Source: an uncultured Armatimonadetes bacterium (GTDB lineage: Bacteria > Armatimonadota > Hebobacteria > Hebobacterales > Hebobacteraceae). Taken from it: a DNA stretch of 64,000 nt. Location of the stretch: the NCBI GenBank assembly GCA_963716175.1, contig OY970296.1, positions 1,632,001 to 1,696,000 of the forward strand. The letters are read 5' to 3'. The notes under the pieces were generated by a model. It ran no database searches. It was not told the origin of the DNA and worked only from the letters and a program-made list of their open reading frames with translations. Below, in pieces: positions 1 through 63,328 of the stretch (its first letter is position 1; each line of letters begins with the position of its first letter). The translations under genes were made by a program, and so were the position numbers.

Positions 1-490
1 CACCCCCGCGCACGGCCTCGCGGGCGGCGAGCAAGGCCCCGCGCGGCTCCGGCACCACGATGGACTCGGCGGCCGCCTCCAGAGCCTGGAGGATCGGCAC
101 TCCCACCTGGAGCATTAGTCCGAGACGGCCCACGGCAAGGGAGTATTCGCGAAGCAGACGGTTGTGAGACGCCGGCAGGGATCGCTCCGCCTCCAGGCGA
201 TCAGCGAGCTTAGTCAGCGCAGGCCCGGGCGCGCCGTGCAGCTCACCGCTGAGGATGGTTCCCCAGACGAACGCTGGGACGCGGGAGATCAGCCCTCTCG
301 CAACCGTGGCCTCCGATACCAGGTTGTCTCGCATCGCGCGCAGGAGGGCTCGTGGCCCCGCGGGGGCGCGTGGAGAGATGCTGTCCAAGGCCTGCAAGAT
401 GGTGGTGTCGCCCTGCAGGGCGGCCGCCAGGCGGCGGCAAACCCAGACTACGTCCTTTGCGGCCTGCGCGGAAAGCTGGTTCTGGCCCAT
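1..490 (-). CDS. Type II secretion system F / PilC-family domain protein (runs off the window edge)
   Basis: Manual translation from ATG at 490: MGQNQLSAQAAKDVVWVCRRLAAALQGDTTILQALDSI...ELHGAPGPALTKLADRLE...GRLGLMLQVGVPILQALEAAAES. Two T2SSF-like motifs. Not in the ORF track because there is no stop inside the window. Confidence 0.7.
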   Translation of the reverse strand, partial: MGQNQLSAQAAKDVVWVCRRLAAALQGDTTILQALDSISPRAPAGPRALLRAMRDNLVSEATVARGLISRVPAFVWGTILSGELHGAPGPALTKLADRLEAERSLPASHNRLLREYSLAVGRLGLMLQVGVPILQALEAAAESIVVPEPRGALLAAREAVRGG

Positions 491-534
491 GCCAAGGCCC
501 CCTTTCCAATGGCTATCACTGGTTATCATCAGTC

Positions 535-565
535 ATCATATACCATATTTGATAGGACATGTCAA
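535..565 (-). promoter_or_regulatory. Putative sigma70 promoter for the T2SSF-like gene
   Basis: Minus strand TTGACA (565-560) with TATATG/TATGAT 17-19 nt downstream, in an AT-rich patch. Confidence 0.45.
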
Positions 566-630
566 GGGGCTCCTGCATATTCCTCGCACCGTAGTGGCCG
601 GAGCAGATGGTAGGACGGTGAGGTGGAGCC

Positions 631-1542
631 GTGACGCCTGAGATTCCAGTATTGCCGCAGATGCGGGCCCTCGGACTGGAGGACCGAGCGATCCTGCATC
701 CACTCTTGGGGGAGCTGCGGCCCCAGCAGTCCGAGTTCACGTTCACCAATCTGTTCATCTGGCGTGACGCGCATCAGCTCCGGCTCTCCCGCGTGGGCGA
801 GGCGGTGCTGATCTTCTCGTGGCGGGCCGACCCGGAGGACTCGTTCCTGTTCCCTCCCTTGGGCGCGGGTGCGGATAGGACCGTGGTGCGCGCGGCGCTG
901 GAGCACATGGCGGCGGAGGGGCACAATCCCCGGCTGGCGCGGGCCACCGTGGAGGACCTGACGCGGTTGGAGGTGACGGAAGACGAGTTTGCGATCCAGT
1001 CCGATCGCGCGCAGTGGGACTACGTCTACCCGGTGCAGGACCTGATCGAGCTGCGCGGGAATCGCTATCATGGGAAGCGGAACCACCTGGAGCAGTTCAC
1101 CCAACGCTATCAGTTCAGCTATCATGGGCTGGCGGCGGAGCTGGCGCCGGCCTGTCAGGAGCTGCAGGATCGCTGGTGCGATGAGAAGCACTGCGACCTG
1201 GTGGCGACCCTGCACAGTGAGAGCCGGGCGGTGAAGGAGGCGCTGGAGGAGTTCGAGACGCTGGGGATCACCGGGGGCTGCATCGTGGTGGAGGGGAAAG
1301 TGGAGGCGTTCGCGCTGGGCGAACTCCTGAACCCCGAGACGGTGGTGATCCACATCGAGAAGGCGAACGCGGCCTTCCACGGTCTCTATCAAGCTGTCAA
1401 CCAGCAGTTCCTGGAGCAGGCATGGAGGCGAGTTCCTTACGTGAATCGAGAGCAGGATCTAGGCCTTGCGGGCCTACGCAAGGCGAAGGAATCGTACCAC
1501 CCACATCACATGGTCGAGAAATTCGAAGTGCGCCTGAAGTGA
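631..1542 (+). CDS. DUF2156 / phosphatidylglycerol lysyltransferase-like GNAT domain protein
   Basis: Motifs SEFTFTNLFIW, DYVY...LRGNRYHGKRNH, HIEKAN, YVNREQDLGLAGLRKAKESYHP. Confidence 0.85.
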   Translation: MTPEIPVLPQMRALGLEDRAILHPLLGELRPQQSEFTFTNLFIWRDAHQLRLSRVGEAVLIFSWRADPEDSFLFPPLGAGADRTVVRAALEHMAAEGHNPRLARATVEDLTRLEVTEDEFAIQSDRAQWDYVYPVQDLIELRGNRYHGKRNHLEQFTQRYQFSYHGLAAELAPACQELQDRWCDEKHCDLVATLHSESRAVKEALEEFETLGITGGCIVVEGKVEAFALGELLNPETVVIHIEKANAAFHGLYQAVNQQFLEQAWRRVPYVNREQDLGLAGLRKAKESYHPHHMVEKFEVRLK

Positions 1543-2399
1543 GAGCGCGTCTCCGCCAGCTCTTCGTCTCTGGACTCTGCCTGCTGGCGACGGCCGGCGC
1601 GGCGCGCGCGGCGCCCCGGATCGAGCTGGCCCCGGAAGGACCGCGGCCCGGGGAGGTGATACTGATCACACTGCGGCCCGAGCAGGCGCTGCTGCGCGCT
1701 TCCTGCTCGTGGCGCGGGCGCGCGTATGCTTTCCTCCCTGTCGAAGACGGCTACGGGCTGGTGCTCCCGGTGGCGGCGAGCGCGCGACCTGGCGGCTATC
1801 ATGCCACCATCTACTGGAAATACGAGGACGGCCAGGGCGGAGCGGTAAGCCTGCCGGTGGAGGTGGCACCGAGACGGTTTGGAGTGCAGCGGCTGCGGCT
1901 ATCGGCGAGCCAGGAGCGGCGGTATTCGGCGCCAGAGACGGCGCGGGAGTACCAGCTGATTGGGGCGGCGCTGGACCGGGTGGGCCCGCAGCGGCTGTGG
2001 CGGGGGGATTTCACGATGCCGCTGCATGGGCGTGTGAGCACGGAATTCGGGCTTCAGCGGTACGTCAACGGGCGCTTCGACTACCGCCACCGGGGGCTCG
2101 ACATCGCGGCGCCGCAGGGCACGCCGGTGCTGGCGCCAGCGGCGGGGGTGGTGGCGCTGGCCGACGCCTCCTTCCTGCTGCACGGGCAGACGGTGATCCT
2201 GGACCACGGGCAGGGCACGGCCTCACTCTACCTGCACCTGTCTCAGATCGAGGTCACGCCGGGCGAAGCGGTGGAGCAGGGCCAGGTGATCGGTCGCGTG
2301 GGGGCCACCGGGATTGCGACCGGGCCGCATCTGCATTACGCTGTCTACGTCTACCACGAGGCGGTGGATCCGCGGTGCTGGCTGCACCTTCCCCGCTGA
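1539..2399 (+). CDS. M23 family metallopeptidase (secreted)
   Basis: GTG start overlaps the upstream stop (GTGA); signal peptide; HRGLD, ILDHG, TGPHLH motifs. Confidence 0.9.
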   Translation: MRARLRQLFVSGLCLLATAGAARAAPRIELAPEGPRPGEVILITLRPEQALLRASCSWRGRAYAFLPVEDGYGLVLPVAASARPGGYHATIYWKYEDGQGGAVSLPVEVAPRRFGVQRLRLSASQERRYSAPETAREYQLIGAALDRVGPQRLWRGDFTMPLHGRVSTEFGLQRYVNGRFDYRHRGLDIAAPQGTPVLAPAAGVVALADASFLLHGQTVILDHGQGTASLYLHLSQIEVTPGEAVEQGQVIGRVGATGIATGPHLHYAVYVYHEAVDPRCWLHLPR

Positions 2400-2474
2400 A
2401 GATGGAGTGAGGAAAGCGGCGTTCCCTCGGTGTTACTCTGGCGCGCGCTGCTGCGAGCAGGGAGATCAGATAGC

Positions 2475-2507
2475 GATCGGGCGAGGGAGCATCTCCCTCG
2501 CCCGATC
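2475..2507. terminator. Hairpin between convergent genes (probable terminator)
   Basis: Perfect 15-bp stem gatcgggcgagggag-cat-ctccctcgcccgatc. Confidence 0.65.
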
Positions 2508-2518
2508 TCTTTCGCCGA

Positions 2519-2584
2519 CTACTTCTTCTTTTTCTTCGCCGATTTCTTTGCGACCTTCTTTGCGGCCTTCTTCTTGGCTGGCAA
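2519..2584 (-). CDS. 21-aa lysine-rich microprotein MPAKKKAAKKVAKKSAKKKKK
   Basis: TTG start preceded by the purine-rich RBS aagaagggggg; TAG stop; 12 of 21 residues are Lys; hairpin immediately downstream. Confidence 0.65.
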   Translation of the reverse strand: MPAKKKAAKKVAKKSAKKKKK

Positions 2585-2847
2585 CTCTGTTGCCCCCCTT
2601 CTTGCGTACCGCGTATGCGATGAGGACCGCATCACCTGTGCCCGGGCTCAGGCCCCTTTGGCGCGGCACGTTGATAGATGGCCTAACCGCCTCTTTGGCC
2701 ACTCGCGCGCGTCCGCGCGATGAGTCTGATCGCATATGCCACACTTTGGTCACTTTCTCGCACTCACCTCGCGAAAAAGTTTTGCACTGAGGTCGCGTGG
2801 GAGACGAGAGCGCGACACGAGAGGTGATGTCATGTGAGGACGCGGCA

Positions 2848-2951
2848 CTACTGAGCTTCGCCCAAAGAAATAACGGAGCGAAGCTCAGGCAACTGGTCAG
2901 ACGGGCCCGGAGCGGCGTTCGCACATTACTTCTCTGTGCGAACGCCATTAG
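2848..2951 (+). mobile_element. 104-bp twin-hairpin MITE-like element, copy A
   Basis: CTA...TAG ends; hairpins ctgagcttcgc...gcgaagctcag and ggcgttcgcaca...tgtgcgaacgcc; homologous to 6718-6821 and 15017-15120. Confidence 0.7.
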
Positions 2952-3021: not shown

Positions 3022-3306
3022 CTACTCGCGCACGGCGAGAATGGAGTCTTCATCCAGCAGCACCAGGTCCTCGCCGCCTACCGTCACTTCGGTCCCCGCG
3101 TACTTCGAGTAGATTACAGTATCGCCGACCTTGATATGGAGCGGGATACGCTTGCCATTCTCCAAGCGCTTGCCGCTGCCGACAGCCAGCACCCTTCCCT
3201 CCTGGGGTTTCTTGCGAGCGGTATCCGGGAGCACGATGCCGCCCCGGGTGCGCTCCTCTGCTTCGTGCGGGCGCACCAGCACACGATCAGCTAGCGGCTT
3301 CAGCAT
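3022..3306 (-). CDS. groES: Co-chaperonin GroES
   Basis: LKPLADRVLV...TRGGIVLPDTARKKPQEG...VGDTVIYSKYAGTEV; RBS aaggagg. Confidence 0.97.
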   Translation of the reverse strand: MLKPLADRVLVRPHEAEERTRGGIVLPDTARKKPQEGRVLAVGSGKRLENGKRIPLHIKVGDTVIYSKYAGTEVTVGGEDLVLLDEDSILAVRE

Positions 3307-3473
3307 GAGCCTGTACCTCCTTGACGGTGTCTGACAACGCTGTGTTCAGGGCTCTATGAAAGCGGCCTACGAGCCGTGCCAACCCGGGTATCCGGTTCTG
3401 ATGCGGCTTCGGCGCAGACTCGCCCCGAAGCCCGCCACCGCCCTTCCTGGGCAAGAGCACGGACACGGGCGGT

Positions 3474-3502
3474 ATTGTATTTTCCGCCTGTGGGGTTGTC
3501 AA
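3474..3502 (-). promoter_or_regulatory. Sigma70 promoter of groES
   Basis: TTGACA-N17-TACAAT on the minus strand. Confidence 0.8.
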
Positions 3503-3538
3503 GCCAGCAGGGGCAGGAGCAAGCTCCTGCCCAACGAA

Positions 3539-3564
3539 CCCTACTTCGCCAAGGCTTCGTAGGG
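3539..3564. repeat. Imperfect palindrome of the cttcgccaaggcttcg family
   Basis: ccctac-ttc-gcc-aa-ggc-ttc-gtaggg; the same core recurs at about 20610-20633. Confidence 0.6.
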
Positions 3565-3601
3565 CAGGCTGCTTCTGGCCTGCTCACGCAGCCGGAGAGC
3601 C

Positions 3602-5053
3602 ATGGCCTTCGAGGGACTGCAAGACTACGCGGCGGCGCTGGAGAGGCGCGGCGAGCTGCGCACGATTGGGGCCTCGGTTGACCCGGAGCTCGAGATCACT
3701 GAGATCGCGGACCGGGTGCTGCGCGCGGGCGGACCCGCGCTGCGGTTCACCGCGCCCAAGGGATCGCGCTATCCGGTGCTGATCAACCTGTTCGGCACGG
3801 CCGCGCGGACGGCCTTCGCGCTGGGAGTCTCGAATGTGAACGAGATCGGGGCGCGACTGGAGGGCCTGCTGCGGACCCAGCCGCCGAGCTCGCTGCTGGA
3901 TAAGCTGCGGGCGATACCCAGGCTGGTGGAGATGAGCTCATGGGCGCCGCGCCAGGTGGGGACCGCGCCTTGCCAGGAAGTGGCGGAGGAGAATGCCTCG
4001 CTGTTGGACCTGCCGGCCCTGAAGTGCTGGCCGGGGGATGGCGGGCGGTTCCTCACGCTCCCCATGGTGATCACGCGCCATCCCGAAAGCGGGCAGCGCA
4101 ATGTGGGCATGTACCGGATGCAGATCTTCGACGAGCGCACCACGGGCATGCACTGGCACCCCCACAAGGTGGGGGCGGCGCACTACCGAGCCTATCAGGC
4201 GCGGGGGGAGCGAATGCCGGTGGCAGTGGCCCTGGGCAGCGACCCGGCGGTGATCTATGCCGCCACCGCGCCGCTGCCGGAGGAGTTCGACGAGATGCTC
4301 TTCGCCGGGTTCCTGCGGCGGAAGTCGGTGGAGATGGCGCGGTGCCGGAGTTGCGAGCTGGAGGTGCCGGCCGACGCCGAGTTCGTGCTGGAGGGATATG
4401 TCGAGCCCGGCGAGTTGAGAACAGAGGGACCGTTCGGGGACCATACCGGCTACTACTCACTGCCCGCCGAGTTCCCGGTGTTCCACTTGACGGCACTGAC
4501 GCGGCGGGCGCGCCCGGTCTATCCGGCCACCATCGTGGGGCCTCCGCCCAAGGAGGACTGCTTCCTGGGGAAGGCCACGGAACGGATTTTCCTGCCCTTG
4601 CTGCGAATGCAGGTTCCCGAGATCGTTGACATCAACCTGCCGATCGAAGGGATCTTCCACAACCTGGCGCTGGTGCGCATCGCCAAGCGCTATCCGGGGC
4701 AGGCCTTCAAGGTGATGCACGCGCTCTGGGGAATGGGCCAGATGATGCTGACCAAGATCATCGTGGTGGTGGATGAGGAGGTGGATGTGCAGAACCTGCC
4801 CCAGGTGATATGGCGGGTGGGGAACAACATAGACCCGGAGCGCGATGTCTGCTTCGTGCCAGGGCCGGTGGATATCCTCGACCACGCGGCCCGGCTGCCG
4901 GGCTTCGGCTCCAAGATGGGCGTTGACGCCACGCGCAAGCTGCCCGGGGAAGGCTTCTCTCGCCCCTGGCCGGAGGTGATCGAGATGAGCGCAGAGGTGC
5001 GGGCCCGGGTGGACGGGGTGATGGGGACGCTGGGACTGGAGGAAAGAGAATGA
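3602..5053 (+). CDS. ubiD: UbiD-family (MqnL-type) menaquinone biosynthesis decarboxylase
   Basis: NVGMYRMQ, EGPFGDHTGYY, YPATIVGPPPKED, GSKMGVDATRK; mqn gene context. Confidence 0.92.
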   Translation: MAFEGLQDYAAALERRGELRTIGASVDPELEITEIADRVLRAGGPALRFTAPKGSRYPVLINLFGTAARTAFALGVSNVNEIGARLEGLLRTQPPSSLLDKLRAIPRLVEMSSWAPRQVGTAPCQEVAEENASLLDLPALKCWPGDGGRFLTLPMVITRHPESGQRNVGMYRMQIFDERTTGMHWHPHKVGAAHYRAYQARGERMPVAVALGSDPAVIYAATAPLPEEFDEMLFAGFLRRKSVEMARCRSCELEVPADAEFVLEGYVEPGELRTEGPFGDHTGYYSLPAEFPVFHLTALTRRARPVYPATIVGPPPKEDCFLGKATERIFLPLLRMQVPEIVDINLPIEGIFHNLALVRIAKRYPGQAFKVMHALWGMGQMMLTKIIVVVDEEVDVQNLPQVIWRVGNNIDPERDVCFVPGPVDILDHAARLPGFGSKMGVDATRKLPGEGFSRPWPEVIEMSAEVRARVDGVMGTLGLEERE

Positions 5054-5646
5054 CGGAAGTAAAGGAGCTGTTCATCGCCATCACGGGAGCGAGTGGGGCG
5101 ATCTATGCCGATCGTCTGCTGCGCAGAGCGGCGGACCTGGTGGGCCGGCTGGATGTGGTGCTGAGCACGCACGGCGCGGAGGTGGCAGCTCACGAGTTGG
5201 GGTGGGCGGTGGACTTCGACACCCTCCACGTCACCGGGCCGCCGCCGGAGGTGCTGAAGCGGGCGCAGTTCTATCGGCCGGATGACCTCTCGGCGCGCTA
5301 CGCCAGCGGCTCGGCCGCGCCCGACGCCATGATCGTCATCCCCTGCTCGATGAACGTGGCGGGACGGATCGCCTCAGGCCTGGGAGATACCCTGATCACC
5401 CGCGCGGCGGCGGTGTGCCTGAAGGAGCGCCGGCCCCTGGTGCTGGTGGTGCGGGAGGCGCCTCTCAATCTGCTTGACTTGCGGAACTTCGTGGCCCTCA
5501 CGGAGGCGGGGGCGACGATCATGCCGGCGGCGCCGCCTTTCTACTCGAGCCCCAAGAGCATCGAGGAGCTGGCCGATTACTTCGCGGCGCGGGTGCTGGA
5601 CCAGGTGGGCCTGCGGGTGCGGCATCCGGGCCGCTGGGGAGGTTGA
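5050..5646 (+). CDS. ubiX: Flavin prenyltransferase UbiX
   Basis: AITGASGAIY, ASGS, PCSM, LKERRPLVLVVREAP, MPAAPPFY. Confidence 0.92.
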   Translation: MTEVKELFIAITGASGAIYADRLLRRAADLVGRLDVVLSTHGAEVAAHELGWAVDFDTLHVTGPPPEVLKRAQFYRPDDLSARYASGSAAPDAMIVIPCSMNVAGRIASGLGDTLITRAAAVCLKERRPLVLVVREAPLNLLDLRNFVALTEAGATIMPAAPPFYSSPKSIEELADYFAARVLDQVGLRVRHPGRWGG

Positions 5647-6992: not shown

Positions 6993-7865
6993 ATGGCTGC
7001 AAGAGCTGTCATCCTGCTGAAGGCGATTCGGTTTGAGCATACTGCGTTTGCGCTGCCCTTCGCGCTCACCGCGACCTTCGTGGCGGCGATGGGGTGGCCG
7101 CGTCCCTGGACGCTGCTGTGGATTCTGGCGGCGATGGTGGGGGCGCGGACGGCGGCGATGGCGTTCAACCGCATCGCAGACCTGCCTTACGATCGGGCGA
7201 ACCCGCGCACCGCGGATCGGGCGCTGGTCACCGGCGCGCTGACAACTCCGCAGCTCTGGGTGGTGCTGGGGAGCGGCGCCGCGGTCTATTTTCTCTGGGC
7301 CGGGATGCTGAACCGGCTGGCGCTGTCACTGTCGCCGTTCGCGCTGGCGGTGCTGCTGGGCTACTCCTATACCAAGCGGTTCACGGTATGGACGCACTGG
7401 ATCCTGGGCTTCTGCCTGGGGCTGGCGCCGGTGGGGGCCTGGATCGGGGTGCGGGGCCGATTCGATCTGCCGCCCTTGATCCTGTGCCTGGCGGTGACCA
7501 CGTGGACGGCCGGCTTCGACATCATCTATGCCTGCCAGGATGTACAGTTCGACCGGAAGCAGGGCTTGTTCTCACTGCCGGCGCGGTGGGGCGTGCGGCG
7601 GGCGCTGGTGATCTCCACGGTGAACCATGTGCTCACGGTCTGGCTGCTCTGGCTGTTCGGTGAGGCGGCGCACCTGGGGGCGCTGTACTTCGCGGGCGTG
7701 GTGGCGCTGATACCGGTGCTCTGGTACGAGCACCACGTGGTGCGGCCGGAGGACCTGAGCCGGGCCGAGATCGCCTCCTTTTTCGCCAACGGCGTCTTCA
7801 GCATCGTGCTCTTCCTCTTTGCTGCGGCCGATGTTATCCTGGTCAGCAGCAAGATGCGAATATGA
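6993..7865 (+). CDS. ubiA: UbiA-like polyprenyltransferase (MqnP type)
   Basis: IRFEHTAFALPF, AMAFNRIADLPYDRANPRT, YSYTKRF, GFDIIYACQD; multiple TM helices. Confidence 0.9.
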   Translation: MAARAVILLKAIRFEHTAFALPFALTATFVAAMGWPRPWTLLWILAAMVGARTAAMAFNRIADLPYDRANPRTADRALVTGALTTPQLWVVLGSGAAVYFLWAGMLNRLALSLSPFALAVLLGYSYTKRFTVWTHWILGFCLGLAPVGAWIGVRGRFDLPPLILCLAVTTWTAGFDIIYACQDVQFDRKQGLFSLPARWGVRRALVISTVNHVLTVWLLWLFGEAAHLGALYFAGVVALIPVLWYEHHVVRPEDLSRAEIASFFANGVFSIVLFLFAAADVILVSSKMRI

Positions 7866-8968
7866 GCCAAGTCGTCTTCGAGTCAGCGGACCTGCGCGAT
7901 ATCGCGGACAAGGTCGTGCGCGGTGAGCGGCTCTCGCGGGAGCACGGCCTGCGCCTGATGGCGACTCCTCACCTGGCAGCGCTGGGGGCGCTGGCCAACC
8001 TGGTGCGCGAGCGATGGCACGGGAATGGCACTTACTACATCGTGAACCGGCACATCAACTACACCAATATCTGCGTCAACCGCTGCCGATTCTGCGCTTT
8101 CTCTCGAAGCGAGGGGGAGCCGGGCGCTTTCCTGCTGCCAATCGAGGAATGCCTGGCGAAGGCCGAGTCGTTCCGCGGGGGCCGGGTGAGCGAGTTCCAC
8201 ATCGTGGGGGGCTGCCATCCATCGCTCGGCCTCGATTACTACACCGGGTTGCTGTCCGGGCTCCGCGCGCGGTTCCCGGAGGTGCACCTGCAGGCCTTCA
8301 CCGCGGTGGAGGTGGCGCACATCGCCCAGGTGGCCGGTATCACGGTGCACGAATGCCTGGAGCGGCTGCGGGAGGCGGGGTTGGGGTCACTGCCGGGAGG
8401 CGGGGCGGAGGTGTTCTCCTCGCGGGTGCGGGAGGCGCTCTGCCCCCGCAAGCTGCCCGCGGAGGAGTGGCTGGAGGTGATGCGCGCCGCCCATTCCCTG
8501 GGCCTGCGCAGCAACTGCACCCTGCTCTATGGTCACATCGAGAGGGCGGAGGAGGTGGTTGATCACCTGCTGCGGCTGAGGGCGCTTCAGGATGAGACCA
8601 GGGGCTTCCTCGCCTTCATCCCGTTGGCCTTCCACTCCGGTCACACGGAGCTCGAGGGAGAGATCGCAGGGCCGACGGCCTGGGAGAGCCTGCGCCTGTT
8701 TGCGGTGAGCCGGCTGCTGCTGGACAATATCCCGCACCTGAAAGTGTTCTGGATCATGCTGGGGCTGAAGTTGGCCCAGGTGGCGCTGAGCTTCGGCGCG
8801 GATGATGTGGACGGCACGGTGGTGGAGGAGCGGATCACGCACGCGGCGGGGGCGGAGACGCCGGAGGCGCTGACGGTGGAGGAGCTGAAGCAACTGATCC
8901 AGGGCGCGGGGCGGCAGCCGATCGCCCGCGATACCGTCTACCGGCCGGTGCGGGAGGAGGTGTCGTGA
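7862..8968 (+). CDS. mqnE: Aminofutalosine synthase (radical SAM)
   Basis: NRHINYTNICVNRCRFCAF, SLPGGGAE, FIPLAFH, LDNIPHLKVFW, EERITHAAGA. Confidence 0.9.
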   Translation: MSQVVFESADLRDIADKVVRGERLSREHGLRLMATPHLAALGALANLVRERWHGNGTYYIVNRHINYTNICVNRCRFCAFSRSEGEPGAFLLPIEECLAKAESFRGGRVSEFHIVGGCHPSLGLDYYTGLLSGLRARFPEVHLQAFTAVEVAHIAQVAGITVHECLERLREAGLGSLPGGGAEVFSSRVREALCPRKLPAEEWLEVMRAAHSLGLRSNCTLLYGHIERAEEVVDHLLRLRALQDETRGFLAFIPLAFHSGHTELEGEIAGPTAWESLRLFAVSRLLLDNIPHLKVFWIMLGLKLAQVALSFGADDVDGTVVEERITHAAGAETPEALTVEELKQLIQGAGRQPIARDTVYRPVREEVS

Positions 8969-60066: not shown

Positions 60067-60822
60067 ATGAGCACTAACACACGACGAGATTTCCTGCGAA
60101 GGGGAGGCGCCCTGGTGGCCGTGGCAGTGGCTGGCCCCGGTGCCTTGCTGGCGCAAGTGGCGCCGCGGGAGGCGGGGCCGAAGGTGACCGCCCTGGAGGA
60201 TCTGATGCGGGAGCACGGCCTGCTCGCCCGCATCCTGCTGATCTATGAGCGACTGCGGATAGGCTTGGGCAGCCCAGAGCCCTTCCCTGCAGAAACGCTC
60301 ACCGCAGCGGCCGACTTCGTCCGCTCCTTCGTGGAGGACTATCACGAGAAGCTGGAGGAAGACCACGTGTTCCCGCGGTTCGAGAAGGCGGGCCAGCTGA
60401 CAGACCTGGTGGCGGTGCTGCGCGCGCAGCACCAGGCGGGGCGGCACATGACCGACCTGATCAAGGGCCACCCACCGCTGGATCGCCCCTCGGTGCGAAG
60501 GCGGCTGTCCAGCCAGCTCCGCGCCTTCGTCACCATGTACCGCCCTCACAAGGCGCGGGAGGACACGGTGCTGTTCCCGGCCTTTCATGCTCTGATCTCA
60601 CCGAAGGAATACGCGGCCCTGGGGGACGAATTCGAGAACAGAGAGCAGGCCCTGTTCGGGAGGGGCGGGTTCGAGAAGATGGTGCAGATGATCGCCGAGC
60701 TGGAGAAGAAGCTCGGCATCTACGAACTGGCGGAGTTCACCCCCAAGGGTGTGACACGCGGGCAGCCTGGGCGACCGCAAAGAAGGGTCACGCCGCGGCC
60801 GGCTCCAGCCGCTCCAGCTTGA
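60067..60822 (+). CDS. Hemerythrin-domain protein with a twin-arginine signal
   Basis: TRRDFL; LMREH, DYHEKLEEDHVFP, AQHQAGR, PHKAREDTVLFP. Confidence 0.85.
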   Translation: MSTNTRRDFLRRGGALVAVAVAGPGALLAQVAPREAGPKVTALEDLMREHGLLARILLIYERLRIGLGSPEPFPAETLTAAADFVRSFVEDYHEKLEEDHVFPRFEKAGQLTDLVAVLRAQHQAGRHMTDLIKGHPPLDRPSVRRRLSSQLRAFVTMYRPHKAREDTVLFPAFHALISPKEYAALGDEFENREQALFGRGGFEKMVQMIAELEKKLGIYELAEFTPKGVTRGQPGRPQRRVTPRPAPAAPA

Positions 60823-61097
60823 AGATGACCGGACGGAAGCCGTCGCTGCAGCAGGCGACAGTGACTCCAGGCCCGGCTTCCGATGAAATCCCCGCCCCGG
60901 GCGAGGGTGAGCACGTACTTCTGGATATCGCACCAGGCCCAGCTACAGAAGCCCAGGGGCATGTTCGCGCCCTCTGAGATGAATTCCTGGCCCTCACTCA
61001 ACCGCTCGCAAGGCTCCCAGATATGGGTGGCATAGCGGGCGAGCAGGTCCTCGTGGCGGGTGCGCCTGAGGACGGTGATCTTGATCTTGGCATCCAT
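60788..61097 (-). CDS. TIGR04076 family protein (frameshift at about 60873)
   Basis: KITVLR...PCERLSEGQEF...FCSWAW, then ACCSDGFRPVIFKLER in the next frame. Confidence 0.75.
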
Positions 61098-61298
61098 GCT
61101 GCGCCTCCGCCAGGGGGTCCTGGGTCGAGCCCAACTTTCCCCATGACGACGGGCGACACCTGCGGCTGGGGAGTGGCAAGAAGGGTGGGTTTTGCCGCAG
61201 GTGGGCTGTGAGAGGCGTTAGAAGGTTGTAGGGGCGTGTGGTAAGGTCTAGGCGGAAACGTGGGGGCAGAGCAGCCCCAGCAAAGGAGGCGTGCCCAA

Positions 61299-61589
61299 AT
61301 GGACGTGGTGTTCGTCACCAAGAGTGGAATGGTTAAGCGAACCAAGGCGGAGGAGTTCAGAGAGCAAGGACGCGGGGGCGGCGGGATCACTGCGGTGGGG
61401 GTGGGCGACGGCGACCAGGTGGTCGGGGCGGTGGCTCTGAGCGGCCAGAGCGTGATGGTGGTCACTGCCGGCGGCACCGCTATCCGGTTCTCGGCGCAGG
61501 AGCTGCGGGCCATGGGCCGGGGCGCACAGGGAGTGCGGGGCATCCGGCTGAAGGAAGGCGACAAGGTCGTTGCTGTAGTGGCCGTCTAG
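61299..61589 (+). CDS. Stand-alone DNA gyrase A C-terminal beta-pinwheel repeat protein (2 blades, 96 aa)
   Basis: RBS aaaggagg; VFVTKSGMVKRT...QGRGGGG...DQVV and VMVVTAGGTAIRF...MGRGAQGVRGIRLKEGDKVV; own TAG stop. Confidence 0.85.
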   Translation: MDVVFVTKSGMVKRTKAEEFREQGRGGGGITAVGVGDGDQVVGAVALSGQSVMVVTAGGTAIRFSAQELRAMGRGAQGVRGIRLKEGDKVVAVVAV

Positions 61590-61776
61590 CCGGCCTTGGG
61601 AACCGGTGGTCGGGGGTTAGTCCGCCTCGCTACGTCGGAGCGGACGATAAGCGCCGTGGAGTGAGCCAGTTCGCTCCACGGCGCGGTGTTTCTGGGGGGG
61701 ACCGGAATGCGCTTCATCTGCAATCACTGGCAGGGGAACAGGCGATCTGCGGGCGCGATGGGGCAGCGGACCCCAG

Positions 61777-61850
61777 GCGGGCATGGGGAGCCTACTCCGC
61801 CGAAGCAGCCGAGTCTACTCCGGCTACGAAGGCTGGATGCTCGCCCTGCA
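61777..61850. repeat. GTAG-type REP with a nested gccgaagc-family palindrome
   Basis: ggcgggcat...cctactccgccgaagc...gctacgaaggctgg...atgctcgccctgca. Confidence 0.55.
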
Positions 61851-61930
61851 GAGGTCGCGTGGTAGGTGAACTCCCCTCAGGCGCCGTAGTATCTGTGCGG
61901 ACCAGGAGGGCGGTGATGAAGGAAGGCGGG

Positions 61931-63328
61931 ATGAAGGGGCAGTTGGAGCGCCTGCGGGAGGAGGCGCTCCGGCGGCGGGTGGAGTTTGCGGAGGCCAGGT
62001 TCGCCACGGCGCGCTCCAGCAGCCTGCTGCTGCAAGACGGAAGGGCGGACCGGATGGGCACGGGGGAGCGGGCCGGGATGGGGGTGAGGGTGGTGGTGGG
62101 CGGGGCCTGGGGGTTCGCCAGCACCGAGTCCCGCGCCCTCCCGGACTGGCTCGCGTGCCTGGAGCTGGCGATCGAGATGGCGAAGGTCTCCGCGCAGCGG
62201 ATCGCCGAGCCGGTGGTGCTGGCGGAGGCGCCGGCGACGGTGGACGAGGTGAAGGCCAGCTATCAGATTGACCCCACGCAGGTTTCACTCGAGCGCAAGC
62301 TGGCGGCGGTGCGCGGGTACGAGGAAGCGTCTGCTTGCCGGGCCGGGGAGCGGGTGGCGAACGTGATGACCGGCTACAGCGATGCGCGGCAGAGCGAGAT
62401 GGTGTGCAATACCCGCGGCACGCTGGTCTCGATGGAGTCGGTGCGGACGATGGTATGGCATACCATAATCGCCCAGAATGGAGCCATCCGGCAGCGGGGT
62501 CGGGAGCTGCGCGGCCGGCAGAGCGGGTTCGAGCTGATAGAGGAAACTCCCAGCGCGGAGTTCAGCGTGAAGGCGGCCGAGCGCGCGCTGTCGCTGCTGT
62601 CGGCGCCGCCCGCGCCCGCGGGGAAGTTCCCAGCGATCTTCCACCCCTCGATCACCGGCCTGCTGGTGCACGAGGCGATCGGCCACAACACCGAGGCCGA
62701 CCTGGTGCTCGCCGGGCAGTCCATCCTGGAGGGGAAGCTGGGGACGCGGATCGCGGCGGACTGCATCACCATCGTGGATGATGCCACGGTGCCGGGGTCA
62801 TGGGGATCATATGCCTATGACTCGGAGGGGGTGGCTGGGCAGAGGCGGGTGCTGATTGAGAAAGGAGTGCTGAAAGGTCTCCTTCATTCACTGGAGACAG
62901 CCGCGCGAATGGGTGTTGCGCCCAACGGGTCGGCGCGGGCGGATGGATTCATGCATCGGCCCATCGTGCGCATGAGCAACACCATGATCCAGCCAGGGGA
63001 GGCCTCCCTGGAGGAGCTGATGAAGGACATCGAGCTGGGAATCCTGCTGCGGGGAGGGCAGTGGGGATATGTGTGGTGCGAGAAGGGGCAGTACACCTGC
63101 CATGCGGGGGAGGGGGTGATGATCCGCAACGGGCAGCTCGCCGAGCAGGTGAGGGATGTCTCGATCTCAGGGATGACGCTGGAGACGCTGGCGAACGCGC
63201 AGGGGGTGAGCCGGGATTTCGAGCTGGAGATGCCGGGGAATTGCGGGAAGAATGGGCAGAGCATGCCGGTCAATGGCGGCGGGCCCTATGTGAAGGTGAA
63301 GGAGATCGTAGTGGGAGGGCAGGGGTGA
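61931..63328 (+). CDS. tldD: TldD family metalloprotease
   Basis: GMGVRV...WGFAS, GLLVHEAIGH, YDSEG, PIVRMSNT, CGKNGQSMPV. Confidence 0.92.
   Translation: MKGQLERLREEALRRRVEFAEARFATARSSSLLLQDGRADRMGTGERAGMGVRVVVGGAWGFASTESRALPDWLACLELAIEMAKVSAQRIAEPVVLAEAPATVDEVKASYQIDPTQVSLERKLAAVRGYEEASACRAGERVANVMTGYSDARQSEMVCNTRGTLVSMESVRTMVWHTIIAQNGAIRQRGRELRGRQSGFELIEETPSAEFSVKAAERALSLLSAPPAPAGKFPAIFHPSITGLLVHEAIGHNTEADLVLAGQSILEGKLGTRIAADCITIVDDATVPGSWGSYAYDSEGVAGQRRVLIEKGVLKGLLHSLETAARMGVAPNGSARADGFMHRPIVRMSNTMIQPGEASLEELMKDIELGILLRGGQWGYVWCEKGQYTCHAGEGVMIRNGQLAEQVRDVSISGMTLETLANAQGVSRDFELEMPGNCGKNGQSMPVNGGGPYVKVKEIVVGGQG

Follow-up and report, generated by a model that had tools for sequence, protein, structure and literature searches.

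Can two blades of the DNA-wrapping domain of gyrase form a protein of their own, and what might such a protein do? The question is raised by a short gene in a 64,000-nucleotide stretch of DNA, here called the window, from an uncultured Armatimonadetes bacterium (assembly GCA_963716175.1, contig OY970296.1, positions 1,632,001 to 1,696,000). The gene lies at 61299..61589 on the + strand (C1:1693299-1693589, C1 being the whole contig); it runs from an ATG at 61299 to a TAG stop that ends at 61589, and encodes a 96-aa, 9.7-kDa protein of two blades of the kind that build the C-terminal domain (CTD) of GyrA, the A subunit of gyrase. We refer to the mini-gene and the mini-protein (P0001). An initial annotation had placed the feature at 61280..61589; it correctly described a complete 96-aa gene with ATG and stop, but its 61280 start takes in the Shine-Dalgarno sequence ahead of the true ATG. 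We conclude that the mini-gene is a real, selected, lineage-specific gene. Sequence and modelling together incline us, by a modest degree, to a mini-protein that is a homo-oligomeric, probably trimeric, beta-pinwheel and that, in an accessory architectural role, would bind DNA and bend or wrap it.

A two-blade gene apart from gyrA

A Pfam scan of the mini-protein found PF03989 (DNA_gyraseA_C, a 48-residue repeat, with membership taken as a match above the gathering score) twice, with E 2.3e-32 and 110.6 bits against a cut-off of 27, and no other domain; this bears out the two pinwheel blades of the initial annotation. The blade-type 1 repeat (residues 1-50; 61299..61448, + strand; PF03989 at C1:1693302-1693436, 53.7 bits) resembles odd-numbered GyrA blades, and the blade-type 2 repeat (residues 51-96; 61449..61586, + strand; PF03989 at C1:1693449-1693586, 63.4 bits) resembles even-numbered ones, blade 4 most of all. 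Host gyrA blades score 35.5-54.5 bits against the same profile, and the second blade of the mini-protein is the top-scoring PF03989 blade of the whole genome. The NCBIfam GyrA models (TIGR01063 / NF004043) gave 70-76 bits against cut-offs of 877-902, the match covering only profile positions 605-695 of about 800, and the breakage-reunion domain PF00521 had no match in the Pfam scan of the mini-protein. From these Pfam and NCBIfam matches, the mini-protein consists of two inner GyrA CTD blades and nothing more. It is closer to GyrA than to ParC, both by NCBIfam (70-76 versus 42.6 bits) and by searches of the PDB (E 1.5e-37 versus 1.7e-14).

The mini-gene is well separated from the gyrase genes of its host. 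The genome, a single 4.56-Mb contig with a marker-gene completeness of 90.85%, matches the type IIA breakage-reunion domain (PF00521) once only, at C1:4099259-4100572, in keeping with the earlier remark that no gyrA or parC catalytic sequence is nearby. The host gyrA (851 aa) is found at about C1:4098116-4100671 (positions 358-2913, minus strand, of locus L104), ~2.4 Mb from the mini-gene; no ParC gene was found in the genome. It was suggested at the outset to check whether the host gyrA keeps its CTD, and it does: the gene is intact, with six PF03989 blades and the box QGRGGKG in blade 1. The mini-protein is 45%, 40% and 31% identical to the three blade pairs of this GyrA. Near identity to part of the host gyrA, named in the initial annotation as the mark of a recent fragment or misassembly, is excluded by these values.

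A word-indexed search among proteins of 52-168 aa returned 99 hits out of 142 candidates, of which 87 are 96-98 aa long and 53-99% identical to the mini-protein, so that the same-length homologues looked for are plentiful; the remaining 12 are 65-160 aa, several of them covering part of the query only. Longer relatives are much further away: the best 120 of 305 are GyrA-type proteins or PF03989-only pieces with 35-51% identity, so that a gap separates the family from the gyrases, and none of these 120 is a fused form close to the family. A search from the most divergent member, P0092, recovered eight proteins: the query, six others of the family (97-98 aa) and a protein of 160 aa with 34% identity. 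Among the 80 loci retained from a genome-collection scan, 78 matches were in long frames (gyrA-dominated), the only short complete gene was L008 (on the same contig as L100), and L039 runs into the end of its contig.

We also searched a 50%-identity library of 1.84 billion representatives. With an E limit of 0.001 it returned 7077 hits, the best 150 of which include one family member (P0087, 98 aa), the others being GyrA-type proteins or pieces; since GyrA-type hits fill the best 150, this search could not reveal other short families. Two library proteins exceed the usual six blades: P0221 (1002 aa), a GyrA piece with 9 PF03989 stretches, and P0222 (493 aa), a PF03989-only protein with 8. The ESM Atlas holds clusters of 73-150 members whose representatives are PF03989-only proteins of 102-139 aa, the phylum most often represented being Cyanobacteriota, Pseudomonadota or Bacillota; they could be truncated gyrA genes, or else additional short forms that stand free. 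A 306-aa CTD-only frame at L066 was rejected as a free CTD gene: it belongs to a gyrA (3155-5441) beside gyrB that is split into several frames in a metagenome-assembled genome (MAG), most likely through several frameshifts from sequencing.

The ATG, the ribosome-binding site and the place of the stop (96 or 97 codons) are common to nine orthologues. The initial annotation had asked for signs of purifying selection, and these are clear: over the 36 pairs of the nine orthologues, the median Nei-Gojobori ratio of nonsynonymous to synonymous divergence (dN/dS) is 0.17, individual pairs lying at 0.06-0.46 and their dS at 0.46-1.44. An alignment of the mini-protein with 40 of its 99 relatives (41 sequences) has a mean column identity of 76% and 20 invariant columns. 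The locus is also covered by contigs from other metagenome runs, one of which (run X2) spans 60930-62289 with 29 differences. At least ten variant places fall in the coding sequence; of the ten listed, eight are synonymous third positions, one is a change of TAG to TAA, and one is A17V, at a column that varies within the family; codon positions were read by hand. In all, 20 runs from 17 studies are listed for the mini-gene, every one recorded or guessed as DNA.

The distribution of the mini-gene is narrow. We sampled 201 genomes of the phylum Armatimonadota, searched at E up to 1e-20, and found it in the genome of the window and in eight of the nine other genomes of the same GTDB family, the ninth being a 640-contig assembly; it was absent from all 191 sampled genomes of other Armatimonadota families. 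One further hit carries the name of an Armatimonadota MAG. The class in question, Candidatus Hebobacteria, was described from marine sediments in a study whose text leaves gyrase unmentioned (PMC10290634).

Predicted assembly and putative DNA-binding surface

Both motifs noticed in the initial annotation are present. The loop QGRGGGG (residues 23-29; 61365..61385, + strand) is a low-variability loop in the 41 family members, in which Q23, R25, G27 and G29 never vary, while conservation of G24 and G26 is 90% or more. Its reading as a GyrA-box-like motif stands in a weaker form. Set against the consensus box Q(R/K)RGG(R/K)G given in a review (PMC8216471), the Q, R3, G4, G5 and G7 fit, but positions 2 and 6 are glycine rather than basic, so that this is a degenerate box, not a canonical one; it resembles the degenerate boxes of inner blades, such as QGRGGIG in blade 5 of the host gyrA. 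The second loop, MGRGAQGVRGIRL (residues 72-84; 61512..61550, + strand), carries, with the preceding R70, the arginines that align to mapped DNA-binding residues of GyrA blade 4. Here R70, R74, G78 and L84 are invariant and M72, A76, Q77, R80, I82 and R83 at least 90% conserved; R21 is invariant as well.

The AlphaFold2 monomer model has a mean predicted local distance difference test score (pLDDT) of 80.7, with low confidence at residues 27-29 and 71-80, the glycine/arginine loops; the GyrA box is likewise disordered in the crystal described for Salmonella Typhi (PMC7210945). When this model is searched with Foldseek, GyrA CTDs come first (TMq 0.74-0.80, root mean square deviation 2.6-3.3 Å, predicted against solved), 5ztj being at rank 1 with E 5.5e-5. 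The mini-protein aligns in register to all three blade pairs of the Mycobacterium tuberculosis GyrA CTD (3uc1), with 28, 57 and 46 bits. Pinwheel repeats are described as lending a strand or hairpin to the neighbouring blade (PMC3797127, PMC8216471); because of this exchange, a two-repeat chain cannot complete its blades alone.

We modelled three copies of the chain, in three runs with three controls. The interface score ipSAE was 0.95 in all three runs, versus 0.00 for the best control; the runs share at least 97% of contacts, and partner pLDDT is at least 93. The copies are arranged head to tail: the scored copy uses residues 1-46 to contact one neighbour, and residues 48-96 to contact the other. 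The QGRGGGG loop falls inside the predicted interface between copies (within residues 20-35); in GyrA, the box is placed at the junction of blades 1 and 6 (PMC8216471). On these models the mini-protein is most likely a homo-oligomeric, head-to-tail beta-pinwheel, and the oligomer is probably a trimer, closed as a three-fold symmetric six-blade ring. The homotrimer of the initial annotation thus gains support from the three-copy score; its rebuilt six-blade ring is drawn by analogy, because the contact list does not establish a touch between copies 1 and 2.

The arginines that would form a DNA-binding surface are conserved. Alignment to 3uc1, in which chain positions 66/180/234 are Y577/R691/R745 of GyrA at an offset of 511, with residue types in agreement, pairs R70 of the mini-protein with R691, R25 with R745, and I62 with Y577. 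Substitution of either arginine (R691A or R745A) in M. tuberculosis GyrA is reported to abolish DNA binding and supercoiling (PMC1636481). In S. Typhi GyrA, R712 is given as the equivalent of R691 and R766 of R745, and substitution of R716 is reported to lose DNA binding (PMC7210945); across the two species, changing these arginines abolishes DNA binding or weakens it. R74 stands four residues after R70, as R716 does after R712; the S. Typhi residues R766, R712 and R716 then correspond to R25, R70 and R74 of the mini-protein, all three invariant in the 41 sequences. The same 41 members have a median isoelectric point (pI) of 9.8 and a median net charge of +3. The mini-protein itself has a net charge of +4 per chain, and three such chains would carry +12, equal to the charge of the host gyrA CTD. 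For the nucleoid-associated, DNA-bending or topoisomerase-modulating role put forward in the initial annotation, the conserved arginines and the charge speak in favour, and the strong ribosome-binding site may hint at the abundant expression that a nucleoid-associated protein would need.

We therefore arrange the proposal as follows. Each basic 9.7-kDa chain would supply one odd-type and one even-type GyrA-CTD blade; chains would join head to tail into a closed, three-fold, six-blade ring; the rim of the ring would show three copies of the arginine loops, with R21/R25 in the degenerate box and R70/R74/R80/R83; and the ring would bind, bend or wrap DNA independently of the gyrase core.

Several points weigh against this proposal. 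One is that the contact list leaves a touch between copies 1 and 2 unestablished, and another that the trimer score may stem from likeness to solved GyrA CTDs, whose blade-blade interfaces the predictor may have learned. In the calibration of ipSAE, the mark was attained by 20 of 30 proteins whose solved structures are pairs of one chain, and by 1 of 23 that were solved as single chains; three copies with their own alignment depart from that setting, and its counts hold only roughly here. The modelling covered three copies only, so that a dimer, a tetramer and an open spiral cannot be ranked by it. The box-like motif lacks the basic residues of GyrA-box positions 2 and 6, and the family includes a few neutral or acidic proteins, the lowest pI being 5.4 and the lowest net charge -1. 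The spread over a single family makes the gene dispensable for most relatives. Finally, the genome already has one HU-family gene, leaving no obvious gap to fill; for that reason the mini-protein was rejected as a stand-in for a missing HU.

Other readings of the same data exist. One is a different assembly: a dimer with four blades, a tetramer with eight, or an open head-to-tail spiral or filament along DNA. The contact list of the three-copy model would fit an open chain as well as a ring, topo IV CTDs are described with 0-8 blades and open C-shapes and GyrA CTDs as often spiral (PMC8216471, PMC3797127), and proteins with 8 or 9 PF03989 repeats exist (P0222, P0221). We nevertheless think such an assembly unlikely, given that the three-copy model is very confident, that GyrA CTDs are reported in the same literature to be always six-bladed (PMC3797127), and that two blades of six-bladed CTDs can be superposed on the monomer model with a root mean square deviation of 2.6-3.0 Å. 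Alternatively, the target might be gyrase itself, with the mini-protein modulating DNA topology by acting on the host enzyme or by competing with its CTD for the wrapped segment. The mini-protein mimics the DNA-wrapping domain of gyrase, its best match being the blade 3-4 pair, which has been proposed as the DNA-wrapping pivot in S. Typhi GyrA (PMC7210945); the host has a sole type IIA A subunit and no ParC, so that one enzyme must both supercoil and decatenate; and in Borrelia a free CTD, Gac, is described as acting as a specific regulator (PMC10127594). Yet the closed, strand-exchanged GyrA CTD has no obvious slot for extra blades and the mini-gene is unlinked to gyrA or gyrB, and we hold this role, too, to be rather improbable.

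Somewhat less probable still, in our view, is reuse of the pinwheel scaffold for an RNA or protein partner whose binding the conserved loops would serve. This would suit a lineage-specific family that has shifted away from every GyrA blade-pair clan and that includes members, with pI down to 5.4, that are not basic; but the invariant residues are the very ones that align to mapped DNA-binding arginines, and no other Pfam domain was seen in the mini-protein, nor a conserved partner gene in eight relatives. As for the mini-gene being a decaying gyrA fragment, a misassembly or a chance frame without function, short PF03989-only predictions are indeed common in databases and many are cut gyrA genes, as exemplified by the 65-160-aa hits, the PF03989-only pieces and the broken gyrA of L066. 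Against this stand the identity of at most 45% to the host gyrA, the same length and start in nine genomes, the dN/dS of 0.17, the conserved ribosome-binding site, upstream block and terminator, the conserved neighbourhood, and the independent contigs that span the locus. The divergence from gyrA, the neighbourhood, the orthologues, the dN/dS and the contigs lead us to judge this reading refuted; we would be very surprised to see it return. An accessory DNA-architectural ring is the reading that we favour.

Origin of the two-blade unit and known systems

Where might a two-blade GyrA-type protein have come from? We scored hidden Markov models (HMMs) of each half of the family against 96 GyrAs of 780-970 aa, drawn from the best 120 of the 305 longer hits plus the host, of which 95 were usable. 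The first-half HMM wins at blades 1, 3 and 5 in 95, 93 and 95 of the 95; the second-half HMM takes blades 4 and 6 in 94 and 95 of them. Blade 2 is detectable in 21 GyrAs, and in 18 of these the second-half HMM wins as well. Within 94 GyrAs, the three best blade-to-blade medians all join blades of the same parity (B4-B6 69, B1-B5 63, B2-B6 48.5). Since odd and even blades resemble their own parity, the GyrA CTD has a two-blade super-repeat, of which the mini-protein is one unit. The account of the GyrA CTD in a review (PMC8216471) describes duplication of single blades only.

A tree of two-blade units was built from 28 GyrAs (the first 28 of 41 that passed a k-mer redundancy filter) and 17 family members, over 102 columns. 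Each of the three blade pairs, 1-2, 3-4 and 5-6, groups as a single clan (support 100/100, 100/100 and 99/89), and the mini-protein family adjoins the blade 3-4 clan but lies outside it (95/84); the most divergent family member branches apart from the other 16. An approximately unbiased (AU) test did not reject a clade uniting the family with blades 3-4 of its own lineage's gyrA (log-likelihood 21.5 lower, p 0.214). The idea in the initial annotation that the protein could model pinwheel ancestry may hold: the family does lie outside the blade 3-4 clan, but the AU test leaves an own-gyrA origin standing.

Two histories fit these results. The family could be an old branch that kept a generic blade state, or it could result from secondary excision of blades 3-4, with blade-specific features erased by the demands of a symmetric homo-oligomer. 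We favour a secondary origin because of the narrow distribution. Consensus-like blades, a near-centre position in the tree outside the blade 3-4 clan, and the odd/even alternation in GyrA would together allow a bolder view, in which the mini-protein represents, as relic or re-creation, the state of the gyrase wrapping domain before fusion, and the six-blade CTD arose by tripling a two-blade unit rather than by amplifying one blade six times; we consider that view doubtful.

Among known systems, the GyrA CTD shares with the mini-protein the PF03989 repeats, the predicted blade fold, the odd/even alternation and the aligned DNA-binding arginines, and the mini-protein is basic like the CTD of its host. 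They differ in that GyrA has six blades fused to the breakage-reunion domain, whereas the mini-protein is a free 96-aa chain of two blades, without PF00521 or an acidic tail and with a degenerate box, that would have to oligomerise to complete its blades. The nearest system by function is Gac of Borrelia burgdorferi, likewise a GyrA-CTD-type protein made apart from gyrase, which is reported to bind DNA and repress ospC (PMC10127594). Gac is described there as a complete 35-kDa CTD made from an internal promoter and start codon inside gyrA (PMC10127594), whereas the 9.7-kDa, two-blade mini-protein has its own gene, 2.4 Mb from gyrA and diverged from it. The CTDs of ParC, described with 0-8 or 3-8 blades and in open forms (PMC3797127, PMC8216471), show that pinwheels tolerate other blade numbers and open forms; unlike the mini-protein, they are fused to a catalytic core and lack the GyrA box.

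By architecture, the nearest systems are beta-propellers in which a short protomer builds a closed multi-blade toroid, as predicted for the ring of the mini-protein. The Ralstonia solanacearum lectin (RSL) has two blades per chain. RSL is described as a trimeric beta-propeller, the designed double-repeat protein Pizza2 as a trimer that rebuilds a six-blade propeller, and the Ph1500 family as reaching 12-bladed propellers by oligomerisation. Propellers have a different fold with no detectable homology to the mini-protein, and these examples are sugar-binding or designed rather than DNA-binding; Kopec and Lupas treat pinwheels and propellers as analogous (PMC3797127).

A full-text literature search, with most subscription journals and supplements outside its scope, found no description of a free two-blade GyrA-CTD protein, and a survey in which pinwheels served as search seeds mentions, in its relevant part, no pinwheel members that are highly repetitive. 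All beta-pinwheels named in the literature cited here are multi-blade domains on one chain. One review account holds that the wrapping domain probably began as a free DNA-binding protein of repeated blades; with a naturally occurring, selected two-blade protomer, that step from free protein to domain could be tested at the bench. If the proposal is true, the mini-protein would represent a novel kind of small DNA-architectural protein, found in an uncultured lineage. It would also be the GyrA pinwheel fold in naturally oligomeric form, and would offer protein designers a minimal symmetric DNA-wrapping module. Its relevance is mainly to protein evolution and DNA topology. The family is narrow (one Armatimonadota family among the genomes searched).

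Locus anatomy and neighbouring genes

The mini-gene looks monocistronic, a transcription unit of its own with an upstream block, a Shine-Dalgarno sequence and a terminator hairpin. The strong ribosome-binding site claimed for it is the Shine-Dalgarno sequence AAGGAGG at 61283..61289 (+ strand), 9 nt 5' of the ATG and identical in all nine orthologues. A GTG-started frame from 61260 (109 aa) is not supported as the gene call, since all nine orthologues share the ATG, an MDV N-terminus and the AAGGAGG before the ATG. Just before the ribosome-binding site, the 5' leader holds a short G/C stem-loop, GGGG(G)...CCCC (61262..61278, + strand), whose stem is kept in all nine orthologues with loops that vary in sequence and length; an Rfam scan of 60900-62100 gave no family match at this stem-loop.

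The sole long conserved stretch upstream in the nine orthologues is a promoter-like block at 61214..61247 (+ strand), outside which their upstream regions are unalignable. It contains GGCGTTAGAA (61214-61223) with a -35-like TTAGAA (61218-61223), an 18-nt spacer, a TG at 61239-61240 and a -10-like TAAGGT (61242-61247). A sigma-70 consensus scan of 61050-61950 called no promoter site, so that position and conservation are the grounds on which we call the block promoter-like. The pattern GCGTTAGAA occurs twice in the 4.56-Mb genome, the second copy within a coding frame, and no regulon emerged from a genome-wide search with it.

Downstream lies a terminator-like hairpin of 15 pairs, 10 of them G-C, followed by GGTGTTTCTG (61651..61684, + strand). 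It is the only terminator-like site in 61050-61950 (shuffled sequences gave a mean of 0.2), and a hairpin rich in GC also stands at the corresponding position of the relatives, where both arms carry changes. The sole hit of the Rfam scan, Guanidine-III over this hairpin (61617-61687; E 0.67), reached 17.3 bits against a gathering score of 36; we took it as chance and rejected a riboswitch there.

Neighbouring genes were counted over eight relatives, several of whose contigs end too soon to be informative. Upstream, on the opposite strand, six of the eight have a NUDIX gene; TldD lies downstream of the mini-gene in five, and proB with a 2-oxoacid:ferredoxin oxidoreductase lies further upstream in three. 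These neighbours suggest no function for the mini-protein. Between the mini-gene and TldD, relatives carry a peptidase-like 256-aa HExxH gene with a hydrophobic N-terminus on the other strand (7812-8582, minus strand, at L099), which is absent from the window. A functional link to the downstream TldD/PmbA was rejected because of the terminator between the genes and this intervening opposite-strand gene of the relatives. Between NUDIX and the mini-gene, the window contains two additional genes: a hemerythrin-domain gene at 60067-60822 (+ strand) and a 124-aa frame at 60720-61097 (- strand), the latter without a Pfam match. Both are absent from this place in the eight relatives, and their ends overlap by ~100 bases.

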